Of a DNA stretch of 64,000 bases, positions 41,355 through 44,400 are shown one piece after another (position 1 is the stretch's first letter; every line of letters starts with the position of its first letter). Under the pieces are notes generated by a model. It did no database searches, was not told the origin of the DNA, and saw only the letters and a program-made list of their open reading frames with translations. The stretch is from Candidatus Kaiserbacteria bacterium (GTDB taxonomy: Bacteria; Patescibacteriota; Minisyncoccia; Phycocordibacterales; UBA2100). The position numbers and the translations under genes were made by a program. Location of the stretch: NCBI GenBank assembly GCA_027083345.1, contig JALWOZ010000010.1, positions 7,301 through 71,300 of the forward strand, written 5' to 3'.

Positions 41355-41858
41355 TTAGTATCTCATTTTAACAGCTCGCTCAAGAGCACGAGAGTTGAGT
41401 ACAGGATTACCATCACTATCACAACCTACACTATACCCCTTAGAATTTATCTCAGTTAATTTATCTCCCGACTCATATTTTGTAACTGAGACGTTTATGC
41501 ATTTATTATTTTGCTCAAAATAAAACGAGTTTGTTACTTGTCCCGCTATAAAATCCTTTCCTCCTAGAACTAAATCTGTATTATTCACAGACTCTGGAGG
41601 CCTATACTCACCTACAACGGCAGTATTACATTTAGCTCCATGAGTGGCAGTAGAAGTAGCAAAGGCATTCTGAAAATCTAAATAAAGAGCACATTCCGCT
41701 CCCGAGTCTGCAGCATAGAAAGCATATTGAGAGTCTCTACCAAGACTAGACAATATTATTTCTTTTTGTGCTATGGTAAATATAGAGAGTCCGACAGCCA
41801 AAAGCAGAGAGGCTATAAGAGATGCTAATAACAATGTAAATCCTTTTTGTTTATGCAT
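41355..41858 (-). CDS. minor pilin-like protein with prepilin-type leader but no Glu5 (GspK/PilX-like)
   Basis: MHKQKG|[19 protein letters not shown] cleavage site followed by a hydrophobic helix, with Leu at +5. Confidence 0.45.
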
Positions 41859-41866
41859 AAATATAT

Positions 41867-42466
41867 TTAATTAGTTATCCCTGCTGTCCACTTAAATAAA
41901 TTCTCTTCTATGACAACGCGCCTGGTGTTACCTAATCTACCGGCCAACCACTGTACCTCAGCTCTTACGGTTACCTCTGCTCCATTTGATCCCGACACCT
42001 CTGTTATATTTACGAATCTTTTGAATTTGGAAGAATTCCCAACCTCATGACCATAAAAACCAGTAGTGTCGTTAAAAAGTAAATTATTACAAGAAGACCC
42101 TTCACTTGTGCTACATTGTATAAAATTATTGCTACTAGAGATAGAATCAACCATAAATGGCTCCGCCGATGTCTCATTTTGACTTTTTACATATAAACCA
42201 TTTAACCAATCTAAATTACTATTGCCCTTTATTATCTCTAATAAATTATGATCTCTCTGAGCGCGCACTGTCTCTATAGCCTCTTGAGCCAGGTGGAAGG
42301 CCACCACCTGATCTCTAGCATTATAAGCTGCCATTAAACTCTGAGCTGCCAACGTTAAGGGAGCTGCCACCGCAATAGTTAACACAGTTATAGCAACTAG
42401 AGTTTCTATGAGAGTAAAACCCTGTTTAAAATTTGCTTTACATTTTTTTGTTACTATATTCTCCAT
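41867..42466 (-). CDS. type IV pilin / pseudopilin (prepilin-type N-terminal cleavage/methylation domain)
   Basis: KQG|FTLIETLVAITVLTIAVAAPL. Confidence 0.65.
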   Translation of the reverse strand: MENIVTKKCKANFKQGFTLIETLVAITVLTIAVAAPLTLAAQSLMAAYNARDQVVAFHLAQEAIETVRAQRDHNLLEIIKGNSNLDWLNGLYVKSQNETSAEPFMVDSISSSNNFIQCSTSEGSSCNNLLFNDTTGFYGHEVGNSSKFKRFVNITEVSGSNGAEVTVRAEVQWLAGRLGNTRRVVIEENLFKWTAGITN

Positions 42467-42468
42467 AA

Positions 42469-43047
42469 TTATATATCTAATAACCTCTGGGTAGCACTGG
42501 CTTGTATATCAAATTTAGTAGTGGTCTTTTGCTTCTTAAAACCGGCTTTACCACGCACTATCATAACAACTCTTGGCTGACGTGTATCTCCTTGAGTATC
42601 TGAGGTTTTATAAAATTGTACATAATCTATATCTACCTCTTTTGCCGTCAAAGGTACATTCACAAGCCCAACCCCCTGCACATTATATATCTTATATATC
42701 CTACCAATAGGCTCCTCAGAGCCTGTAGTCGTCTCCTCAAATTTATATCTCCATGTCTCAGTAGGCTTACCAAAAGGAGTAAATGATAACTCATGGTTGT
42801 TGTTAGATACTACGTAATTATTGCCCATCCTTAAGGCACGCACCATGCCATCTAAGGCTATGTTTAAATTATTCATTACAGATTGGATATTCTGAGCTCG
42901 TCTACTTGCATCTATCAATGCTAATAAAGACCCAACACTAACCAACATAACTACAGCAAATAAAGAGACGGCCACCATCATCTCAACTAAGGTAAAACCT
43001 TTTTGATAACATTTTCTATCTAATTGACTATTTTGACTTTTACTCAT
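42469..43047 (-). CDS. type IV pilin / pseudopilin
   Basis: QKG|FTLVEMMVAVSLFAVVMLVSVGSL. Confidence 0.65.
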   Translation of the reverse strand: MSKSQNSQLDRKCYQKGFTLVEMMVAVSLFAVVMLVSVGSLLALIDASRRAQNIQSVMNNLNIALDGMVRALRMGNNYVVSNNNHELSFTPFGKPTETWRYKFEETTTGSEEPIGRIYKIYNVQGVGLVNVPLTAKEVDIDYVQFYKTSDTQGDTRQPRVVMIVRGKAGFKKQKTTTKFDIQASATQRLLDI

Positions 43048-43048
43048 A

Positions 43049-43600
43049 TTATTTCTCTACGGATATCTGCCCAGACACCTCTACCACAACCTTCATTGTA
43101 TCATTCCTAGGAGATTTTAATACAATCTCGGCTCTAGAATAAATTTTATTTTCTGCCCCATTACCTCGTATTATTGCATCTGGCTCAGGCCTCTTAAATA
43201 AAATATCTATCCTATTAACAGGTGTGCAAGACCCACTATTCTCTACCAAACACAAACTACTAACCTCGTATCCTCTGCCTATGTTGTATTTAGTAACTTC
43301 TTCTAATGTATTTGTGAGTAATCCGTCTGGAGTTGAGTCTATAAATATAGAGTACTCTTTAGGAGTACTTAAGTTAAAATATATACCATACCCAGCATCA
43401 AAATTACTGGCGCTATTAGTCTTGCGCACACTAACTCCATAAGTCTGAGCTTCTCTAACTGCTAAGGCCAACTCATATGCAAGGTTACGCAACATAACTT
43501 GTCCTCCAAACTTAGAATGATTCGCCAAAGTTACCCCAGTAATTAAAGCCATTATACCTATGGTTACCACGAGCTCAATTAGTGTAAAGCCACGCCTCAT
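43049..43600 (-). CDS. type IV pilin / pseudopilin
   Basis: MRRG|FTLIELVVTIGIMALITGV, with a short leader. Confidence 0.65.
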   Translation of the reverse strand: MRRGFTLIELVVTIGIMALITGVTLANHSKFGGQVMLRNLAYELALAVREAQTYGVSVRKTNSASNFDAGYGIYFNLSTPKEYSIFIDSTPDGLLTNTLEEVTKYNIGRGYEVSSLCLVENSGSCTPVNRIDILFKRPEPDAIIRGNGAENKIYSRAEIVLKSPRNDTMKVVVEVSGQISVEK

Positions 43601-44400
43601 ATAAATATTATAGCATTTAATATTTCAATAAAACCTACTCCTGTGAAGAACACTACAAGAAAACCCAATATCAAGAAAGGTCCAAAAGCTACCTCGCTCT
43701 TAGCGTTAGCTTTACGCAATAACATTAACACCAGTCCATATATAGCCCCAATAATAAACGCAAACCATAAAGCCGATATACCCATATATATACCTAAAAA
43801 TATACCTATACCCACTGAAAGCTTAACATCACCAAAACCCATGGCCCTCCCTTTAGAGAAGAACCAGAGTGCAAATATAGGCAATGCAGTTGCGACTCCT
43901 CCCAACAAAGACATTAGAAAATCAGCAGGAGTATAACTTGTTATAATAGACGATATTAAAGCAAGACAAGCAAAAGAGTAGGTGTATTTATCTGGCAAAA
44001 TAGTATGCTTAAAATCATATGTAGTCATAATAACCAAAACAGACATGGTCATAAACAATATAATTAAAACAATGCCAGATAACAATAAATCATATGTACC
44101 GAAATGATTATATACAAAAAAGCCAGATAGTGTGAAGAGTATAGCGGTACCAACCTCTACTAATGGATATTGGAGAGATATTTTACTTTTACACTCATTA
44201 CATTTACCTCTTTGTACAATAAAAGAGAGAATGGGTATAAGCTCAAAAAACCTCAAAGACCTCCCACATACCATGCAACCACTCCTACCTGCTAAGCTCT
44301 TACCTGTATTGTGCCGTAAGATAACTACATTTAAAAAACTACCTACAATAGTCCCAAGTATAAATAAAAATATTAAAAATAACCCTATAGATATATCCAT
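43597..44400 (-). CDS. pilD: prepilin peptidase (A24 family, PilD/TadV-like)
   Basis: Tetracysteine motif CMVCGRSL...CNECKSK in the first cytoplasmic loop. Catalytic region GFGDVKL. 8 TMs. Overlaps the first pilin gene by 4 nt. Confidence 0.8.
   Translation of the reverse strand: MDISIGLFLIFLFILGTIVGSFLNVVILRHNTGKSLAGRSGCMVCGRSLRFFELIPILSFIVQRGKCNECKSKISLQYPLVEVGTAILFTLSGFFVYNHFGTYDLLLSGIVLIILFMTMSVLVIMTTYDFKHTILPDKYTYSFACLALISSIITSYTPADFLMSLLGGVATALPIFALWFFSKGRAMGFGDVKLSVGIGIFLGIYMGISALWFAFIIGAIYGLVLMLLRKANAKSEVAFGPFLILGFLVVFFTGVGFIEILNAIIFI

Follow-up and report, generated by a model that had tools for sequence, protein, structure and literature searches.

A PilD and minor-pilin gene set located behind rpoBC in a Candidatus Kaiserbacteria genome

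The five genes behind rpoC

A stretch of 64,000 nucleotides from the Candidatus Kaiserbacteria assembly GCA_027083345.1 (contig JALWOZ010000010.1, positions 7,301 to 71,300 of the forward strand; hereafter the window, whose own numbering is used throughout) carries on its minus strand a run of genes that reads parB, rpoB, rpoC, a gap of 38 nt, five pilus open reading frames (ORFs), ligA, a gap of 104 nt, groES, groEL and gatC-gatA-gatB. The five pilus ORFs, which an earlier reading of the DNA (the original prediction) had placed directly after rpoC, are indeed found there. They are pilD (43597-44400), encoding a bifunctional type IV prepilin peptidase/N-methyltransferase of 267 amino acids; minor pilin 1 (43049-43600; 183 amino acids, N-terminus MRRG/FTLIELV, the slash separating Gly-1 from Phe+1); minor pilin 2 (42469-43047; 192 amino acids, a 17-residue leader and then G/FTLVEMMVA); minor pilin 3 (41867-42466; 199 amino acids, a 16-residue leader and then G/FTLIETLVA); and a PilX-like pilin without Glu5, referred to here as ORF5 (41355-41858; 167 amino acids, N-terminus MHKQKG/FTLLLASL). 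The region is probably the PilD and four-gene minor-pilin set of a type IVa-like pilus of Paceibacteria, a group of ultrasmall bacteria within the candidate phyla radiation (CPR, or Patescibacteria), relocated behind rpoBC with a promoter of its own.

The genes are closely packed. The end of pilD overlaps the start of minor pilin 1 by 4 nt (ATGA), an arrangement conserved in the clade of close relatives described below, and this is the sole overlap, the other junctions being gaps of 1, 2, 8 and 10 nt. The coupling by 4-nt overlaps that had been claimed for the whole series, starting from rpoC, therefore holds for pilD and pilin 1 and for neither the remaining junctions nor the one between rpoC and pilD.

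PilD matches both domains of its family, the N-terminal methyltransferase/zinc-binding domain of bacteria, A24_N_bact (PF06750; E 6.7e-28, 97 bits, cutoff 23), and the membrane domain Peptidase_A24 (PF01478; E 3.7e-15, 56.7 bits, cutoff 26.5). In five clade sequences Asp129 (YDFKH), Asp191 (GFGDVKL) and the cysteine pairs C42/C45 and C67/C70 are invariant; the two aspartates, the second of which lies in a GxGD motif, are presumably the catalytic residues. By its domains, aspartates and CxxC pairs, the protein is a type IV prepilin peptidase (MEROPS A24A, PilD/ComC).

Pilins 1, 2 and 3 exceed the N_methyl cutoff of 21.2 bits (E 1.5e-5 and 24.8 bits, E 2.3e-9 and 36.8 bits, and E 1.6e-6 and 27.9 bits, respectively), as well as the cutoff of the NCBIfam model IV_pilin_GFxxxE. 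All three have the features of a class III signal, namely Gly-1, Phe+1, Glu+5 and a hydrophobic N-terminal part of helix alpha1. Their assignment to subclasses is less firm. Pilin 1 is weakly GspH/FimU-like, with a GspH match (E 1e-4) below cutoff, and pilin 3 is weakly PilV/GspI-like, with PilV (E 3.3e-8) and GspI (E 1.3e-6) matches that are likewise below cutoff. For pilin 2, the NCBIfam matches are below cutoff and cover the N-terminal helix only, which resembles the N-terminus of ComGE, GspH, ComGF or GspJ. ORF5 has no match in Pfam or NCBIfam, so that the check proposed earlier with the Pfam N_methyl and A24 hidden Markov models (HMMs) recognised pilD and pilins 1-3 and left the last member out. 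A six-frame motif scan of the window found prepilin-type N-termini confined to these four ORFs. Further, Pfam annotation of the other approximately 50 ORFs of the window detected no T2SSE (PilB/PilT), T2SSF (PilC) or PilM, in line with the earlier statement that pilB, pilC and pilM are missing from it and extending it to pilT.

ORF5 retains Gly-1, Phe+1 and the hydrophobic helix and carries Leu instead of Glu at +5. This leucine is found in all five close clade sequences, and the family consensus is RGFTLLLA. With more than 3000 homologues, some of them labelled 'Tfp pilus assembly protein PilX' by JGI, ORF5 is part of a large CPR family for which Pfam offers no model. Four cysteines and the motif-core residues S43, F47, Y48, A50, D51, E55 and C56 are invariant across the family, and PilX_N matches 13 of 111 members weakly (best E 1.4e-4). 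The AlphaFold2 model of ORF5 has a mean predicted local distance difference test score (pLDDT) of 95.6 and consists of a 57-residue N-terminal helix followed by a four-stranded antiparallel sheet, a confidently predicted lollipop of the pilin type. A profile search of the PDB sequences returned nothing relevant. In every locus ORF5 is the last pilin gene before ligA. It appears to resemble a tip subunit of the GspK/PilX type without Glu5 and is at most a candidate member of the GspK and PilX families. The outline of a prepilin peptidase followed by a minor-pilin set whose last member lacks Glu5 was correctly foreseen. With more than 3000 members and no solved homologue, the ORF5 family is a sensible choice for defining a new protein family and for structural studies of pilus tips in the CPR.

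The window also contains, on the minus strand, a VKOR gene and a gene for a DsbA-like thioredoxin (1463-1915 and 5214-5939). Such disulfide-forming pairs are reported to be enriched in CPR genomes and have been proposed to fold pilins (PMC6744442), and the presence of the pair fits the four invariant cysteines of ORF5.

From established knowledge of type IV pili (T4P) and type II secretion systems (T2SS), PilD would cleave each prepilin after Gly-1 and methylate Phe+1. The four minor pilins would then assemble on the PilC platform into a priming or tip complex whose apex is the subunit without Glu5, and PilB would polymerise PilA beneath this complex.

The pilus cluster of Paceibacteria and its rearrangement

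Type IV pili are nearly universal in CPR genomes, and their genes are co-localised (PMC6744442). In the complete Candidatus Kaiserbacteria genome CP070993.1 (L081) the order is pilB (MshEN and T2SSE domains), a response regulator gene, pilT, pilC, pilA, pilD, three pilin genes, the PilX-like gene, ligA, gatC and gatA. A metagenome scan with a PilD profile yielded 37 loci, and those outside the clade of the window that had enough sequence (about 25; PilD 35-48% identity) all follow this canonical order, with one to four copies of pilA before pilD and, in nearly all cases, ligA-gatC-gatA after the fourth pilin. Two loci whose ORF5 is about 51% identical to that of the window (L124 and L125) keep the canonical order and have no rpoC-pilD adjacency. 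In the canonical relatives pilMNO-like genes, pilB, pilC, pilA and pilT are all present and contiguous. The ancestral cluster of the wider lineage can hence be written as (pilMNO-like)-pilB-(response regulator)-pilT-pilC-pilA-pilD-four minor pilins, followed by ligA-gatCAB. Documentation of this standard layout for Kaiserbacteria-like Paceibacteria, including its ligA-gatCAB tail, helps the annotation of metagenome-assembled CPR genomes.

Collectively, pilD, the four pilins, ligA and gatCAB constitute an old and widespread block. The original prediction had described the genomic context as unusual for pilus genes. This does not apply to the link with ligA-gatCAB, which is ancestral; the adjacency to rpoC, on the other hand, is new, and it is restricted to one small clade. 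In the window, ligA (39326-41344, minus strand; from the ORF list) encodes an NAD-dependent DNA ligase and begins 10 nt downstream of ORF5, and its ancestral downstream partners gatC-gatA-gatB occupy 33984-37187 on the same strand.

With regard to the tail itself, ligA-gatC-gatA(-gatB) follows the last minor pilin in nearly all related loci (33984-41344 in the window; L081 and L089-L125 among the relatives), usually with gaps of less than 30 nt. A hexamer resembling a -10 box precedes the ligA ATG by 6-9 nt in several relatives, and TATAAT precedes it by 4 nt in the window; the regular-expression search for ligA starts caught five loci only. The linkage of the minor pilins to ligA-gatCAB may be no more than inherited gene order; a possibility is that it has a functional basis, in that a DNA-uptake pilus and DNA ligase are truly co-regulated.

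The extent of the rpoC-pilD arrangement was assessed in the 80 species-representative genomes closest by the rpoC C-terminus, a search that retrieves only metagenome-assembled Patescibacteria/Paceibacteria (labelled Kaiserbacteria, Taylorbacteria or Paceibacterota). The order rpoB-rpoC-pilD-four pilins-ligA occurs in the four nearest of them only (L001-L004; rpoC 81-89% identity, and 81-87% for the C-terminal query). In the other 76 Paceibacteria loci, whose rpoC C-termini are 52-58% identical and of which 60 have at least 3 kb of downstream sequence, no PilD or pilin cluster follows rpoC. ORF5 homologues at 62% identity or more add five further loci (L082, L121, L122, L123 and L128), all with the rpoC-pilD order, which brings the adjacency to ten genomes including that of the window. 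It is real and stable, and confined to this one narrow clade. The comparison of gene order across relatives that had been suggested as a check thus places the arrangement in the window and nine relatives, rather than widely in the lineage. In all ten genomes the five ORFs are intact (54-76% amino-acid identity), with Gly-1/Phe+1, the catalytic Asp residues and the Cys residues conserved. The insertion of groESL between ligA and gatC is narrower still, being found in the window and in L001 only.

Part of the remaining machinery was located elsewhere. Two clade-linked loci (L126 and L127), reached through a PilC search, contain SHMT, pilT, pilC and pilA (147-149 amino acids), followed by a convergent dnaE, and no pilD. 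One of the two PilC proteins (P0172) is recorded on a JGI contig of 188,947 bp, which is also the contig size and source of the clade locus L082. The other (P0174) is recorded on a Logan contig of 102,960 bp, as is an ORF5 homologue (P0012), both from run SRR28892619. The T4P cluster of the clade is therefore fragmented, not lost, and the ancestral single cluster has been broken into at least three pieces. In this course of events, the cluster would have broken between pilA and pilD, the distal half with ligA-gatCAB would have come to lie behind rpoBC, pilT-pilC-pilA would have ended at another locus, and groESL would have been inserted after ligA later, in the lineage of the window and L001. 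What lies behind rpoC is thus an ordinary PilD and minor-pilin module in a slightly unusual place, and the rpoC neighbourhood is a clade-specific rearrangement. Compared with the canonical cluster of L081, the window has the same five genes in the same order before ligA-gatC-gatA, and both have a -10 box 6-9 nt ahead of the pilD ATG. However, L081 has pilB-(response regulator)-pilT-pilC-pilA and a separate pilA terminator upstream where the window has rpoBC; in the window a hairpin resembling a terminator has shifted onto the start codon of pilD, and groESL stands after ligA.

Two genes upstream of the pilT-pilC-pilA block of L127, a gene (1-2217 of that locus) encodes a 912-residue protein with a Peptidase_S74 domain.

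The rpoC-pilD junction and the transcription of the module

The upstream neighbour rpoC (44439-48080, minus strand; from the ORF list) lies outside the pilus module, and two elements occupy the space between it and pilD. The first is a hairpin (44376-44411, minus strand) detected by a terminator scan, by folding and by covariation. It has a stem of 16 bp, followed by the U-rich run UAAUAUUUUU, and resembles an intrinsic terminator; its 5' arm holds the pilD ATG and its 3' arm lies within pilD codons 4-9. The junction (101 nt, 44350-44450) folds with -26.1 kcal/mol (z = -4.0). The hairpin is present in nine of nine aligned clade genomes, with the ATG inside the stem in each, and 92.4% of the cells of the alignment are paired as compared with 42-54% in slid controls. 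Five pairs are changed on both sides (for example U-A to C-G), a covariation reached by none of 500 shuffles, and the stem sequence of L004 is largely different. The A-tract before the stem and the U-rich tract after it are in the same style as the pilA terminators of the canonical relatives, where pilA has a G+C-rich terminator of its own, 16-54 nt upstream of the pilD ATG. No Rfam family was found at the junction at gathering thresholds, where tRNAs were the only matches. A scan for perfect-stem terminators after rpoC in the other 76 loci was insensitive, as it missed the hairpins of L002-L004, and no conclusion was drawn from it.

The second element is a TG-extended -10 box, TGTTAAAAT (44407-44415, minus strand; read from the sequence), a putative pilD promoter. 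The box TGTTA[A/C]AAT is invariant in nine clade genomes, in contrast to the remainder of the spacer, and it overlaps the A-tract of the hairpin. It ends 6 nt before the pilD ATG (7 nt in L004), a spacing from which transcription is predicted to start on the A of the ATG. Across the lineage, a -10 hexamer matching at least five of six positions is found at 33 of 38 distinct pilD junctions. At 31 of the 38 it ends 6-9 nt before the ATG (background at random ATGs 3.1%), and 22 are TG-extended (background 0.46%). The same spacing is seen at 6 of 28 operon-first genes of the window (background 3.5%). No Shine-Dalgarno-like sequence precedes pilD. With its TG-extended -10 box at a distance of 6-9 nt from the ATG, this geometry points to leaderless-type promoters as recurrent at pilD in this uncultivated lineage. 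In the literature on CPR/Patescibacteria, no direct study of leaderless transcription was found.

From these features we infer that pilD and the pilins, possibly with ligA, are a unit of their own, insulated from rpoBC and served by a leaderless-type promoter. Transcripts of rpoBC would stop at the hairpin and U-run covering the pilD ATG, and the pilD-pilin(-ligA) unit would be transcribed from the TG-extended -10 box, yielding a leaderless mRNA that lacks the hairpin's 5' arm. A more elaborate version, which we put forward tentatively and regard as doubtful, is that the 40 nt of the junction may act as a three-in-one insulator, wherein the hairpin terminates rpoBC transcripts and pairs with the pilD start on read-through RNA, and the A-tract doubles as the -10 box, so that only leaderless transcripts initiated at the promoter would be translated.

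The original prediction had regarded the pilus genes as co-transcribed with the core transcription and chaperone genes. For rpoBC this appears not to be the case, as a conserved, covarying hairpin with its U-run and the TG-extended -10 box lie between rpoC and pilD; a terminator and a separate promoter at this very place had been named in advance as the finding that would speak for mere adjacency, and both are predicted there in silico. Nor is the claim supported for the chaperone genes. The 104-nt gap after ligA contains a sigma-70 promoter of groES (39264-39291, minus strand; TTGACA-16-TATAAT) that matches the consensus at 12 of 12 positions in a promoter scan. The groES-groEL segment (37220-39221, minus strand; from the ORF list and the terminator scan) ends in a strong 19-bp groEL terminator (37220-37260), and groESL occupies this position only in the window and L001. 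Thus, groES probably begins a separate transcription unit with its own consensus promoter. No support remains for the constitutive expression that had been deduced from co-transcription. The location of pilus genes beside rpoBC and groESL is no proof of housekeeping-like expression of the pilus, which corrects a tempting over-reading of gene neighbourhoods.

Several observations nevertheless weigh against the reading of a relocated minor-pilin set with its own promoter. No -35 element can be recognised before pilD. A TAAAAT-like A/U-rich motif lies 0-3 nt before many internal start codons of this genome, so that part of the conservation of the -10 box could reflect translation initiation. The core of the hairpin has only four G-C pairs, which makes some read-through from rpoC likely. 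The assignment of GspH/I/J/K-type roles to the four pilins draws on the sub-cutoff, N-terminal HMM matches described above, and Foldseek searches of the PDB with the ORF5 model, either full-length or trimmed of its first 29 residues, yielded no match with an E-value below 0.2. The attribution of pilT-pilC-pilA to the same genomes relies on contigs of equal size and a shared sample or run, not on a displayed contig. Finally, no pilB or pilMNO was located for the clade, and none lies beside pilT-pilC-pilA in L126 and L127.

Some of these points would suit a different explanation, according to which read-through rpoBC transcripts express pilD and the pilins as a housekeeping super-operon that supplies constitutive priming components, the hairpin being at most a weak attenuator. 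The shared strand, the gap of only 38 nt, the A/U-rich hairpin with its few G-C pairs, the lack of a recognisable -35 box and the stability of the arrangement in ten genomes are compatible with it. However, the stem with its U-run has undergone compensatory changes and, on read-through RNA, would base-pair the pilD ATG; pilD is preceded by no Shine-Dalgarno-like sequence; and the -10 box at leaderless spacing reproduces the ancestral geometry of pilD, which is also seen where pilA and a clear terminator lie upstream. A super-operon is therefore unlikely in our view.

Alternatively, the hairpin could be mainly a translational control element that masks the start codon and is relieved by temperature, by a factor or by the traffic of ribosomes on rpoC. 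The enclosure of the ATG by the stem, seen in each of the nine clade genomes aligned, and the rpoC stop codon only 38 nt upstream would agree with such a role. The U-rich tract after the stem and the A-tract before it, as in canonical pilA terminators, and the lack of an Rfam match at the junction argue against it and make it rather unlikely as the main function. It should, however, be noted that a translational role could coexist with termination, which makes this a partial rival to the insulated unit proposed above.

Window-wide, gene starts have almost no Shine-Dalgarno-like sequences. A/U-rich motifs resembling TAAAAT or TATAAT stand 0-3 nt before the ATG of many internal genes, among them rpoC, groEL and the peroxiredoxin gene. 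Leaderless mRNAs are suggested for several operon-first genes (typA, the sigma factor gene, padR, fic and the DUF5674 gene), whose ATG is preceded at 6-9 nt by a -10 box. A perfect TG-extended -10 box, TGCTATAAT (43606-43614, minus strand), also lies within the 3' end of pilD, its end being 6 nt ahead of the start codon of pilin 1. Four of nine clade genomes conserve this box, which is degenerate in the rest, and it could be an internal promoter or reflect a coding constraint on the PilD C-terminus (N-A-I-I). The rpoB gene (48103-51486, minus strand), part of the context of the module, has a longest ORF that opens at a GTG (51445-51486, minus strand); its likely true start is an ATG 14 codons downstream (MAKSKDV...), which is preceded by TATACTATT.

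Related systems and other features of the window

Sets of four co-encoded minor pilins or pseudopilins with class III signal peptides are also known from the Pseudomonas aeruginosa type IVa pilus (FimU-PilV-PilW-PilX) and from the T2SS (GspH-I-J-K), where GspK lacks Glu5. The window differs from these systems in its apparent order, H-?-I-K, which is read from sub-cutoff subclass matches to the N-terminal helix only, in having no PilY1-like gene, and in the globular domain of ORF5, for which Foldseek returned no match to a solved pilin or to GspK. A further difference is that the organism has no secretin and probably no outer membrane (PMC6744442).

Within the CPR, experimental work exists on the T4P-1 locus of Nanosynbacter lyticus TM7x (Saccharibacteria), which encodes PilD, five pilins and PilB/C/T/M/N/O; no PilD signal is predicted for its minor pilins of the PilX type (PMC11623550). 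Like the module described here, it is a CPR pilus locus with PilD and pilins. However, TM7x belongs to a different CPR class, its pilins are not detectably related beyond the N-terminus and its locus is not split; further, its PilX carries large extra domains, as opposed to the compact 167-residue lollipop predicted for ORF5.

The competence pilus of Gram-positive bacteria (ComGC-ComGG and the ComC peptidase) is a monoderm-type pilus built of one major pilin and four minor ones, among which one departs from the canonical residue at position 5. ComGD/E/F models match the window pilins weakly, all NCBIfam Com matches being far below cutoff. Com operons contain ComGA and ComGB and no PilT retraction ATPase, whereas the canonical relatives of the window have PilT.

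These likenesses raise the question of whether the five genes serve a dedicated Com-type DNA-uptake pilus or a T2SS-like pseudopilus instead of a retractile type IVa-like pilus, with the neighbouring ligA as a link to DNA handling. Besides the sub-cutoff matches to ComGD/E/F and GspH/I/J, such a function would be in keeping with the occurrence of ligA after the last pilin gene in almost every locus and with the common presence of ComEC in CPR genomes, which are thought to scavenge DNA (PMC6744442). On the other side, the canonical cluster has an ATPase of the PilT type, an MshEN-containing PilB, PilC and one to four pilA genes, which is a type IVa-like set, and a type IVa-like pilus can itself take up DNA. 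Moreover, LigA is the NAD-dependent ligase of replication, a cytoplasmic enzyme, and its gene is followed by gatCAB, for which a conserved housekeeping neighbourhood is the simpler explanation. A dedicated uptake or pseudopilus function is accordingly rather improbable, and the type IVa-like pilus is preferred.

That pilD and the four pilins are decaying remnants of the broken cluster, as the lack of assembly genes in the window might suggest, is extremely improbable given ORFs that are intact in ten clade genomes with their key residues conserved, and pilT-pilC-pilA elsewhere in clade members. Similarly, the notion of the pilins as pseudogenes or as phage or plasmid cargo was rejected; the genes are conserved, intact and syntenic with housekeeping genes.

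The remainder of the window contains families typical of CPR genomes, namely DUF5674, DUF5667 and a T4SS_pilin-like gene. The latter is a 266-residue ORF (61079-61879, minus strand) that scores 25.2 bits against T4SS_pilin (PF18895), just below the cutoff of 26.6; at its 5' end it shares 71 nt with the start of a divergent deformylase gene, so that its annotated start is probably too far upstream. Two large proteins have features of the cell surface. The first, of 2250 residues (20868-27620, minus strand), has a transmembrane segment at the N-terminus, two Laminin_G_3 domains (concanavalin-like lectin) and an SH3_3 domain at the C-terminus, and is a candidate giant surface adhesin; its local G+C content is 0.40-0.455, compared with about 0.35. 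The second, of 528 residues (62342-63928, minus strand), combines two Peptidase_S74 domains (endosialidase chaperone, tail-fibre type) with a bacterial surface Ig-like domain. Finally, a MerF-like transporter, a P-type ATPase (658 amino acids) and a DUF302 protein are encoded together at 6053-9660 (minus strand) in what resembles a metal-handling set. Not far away (15410-20466) are another P-type ATPase and a ZIP transporter, and such metal genes are an unusual cargo for a reduced CPR genome.

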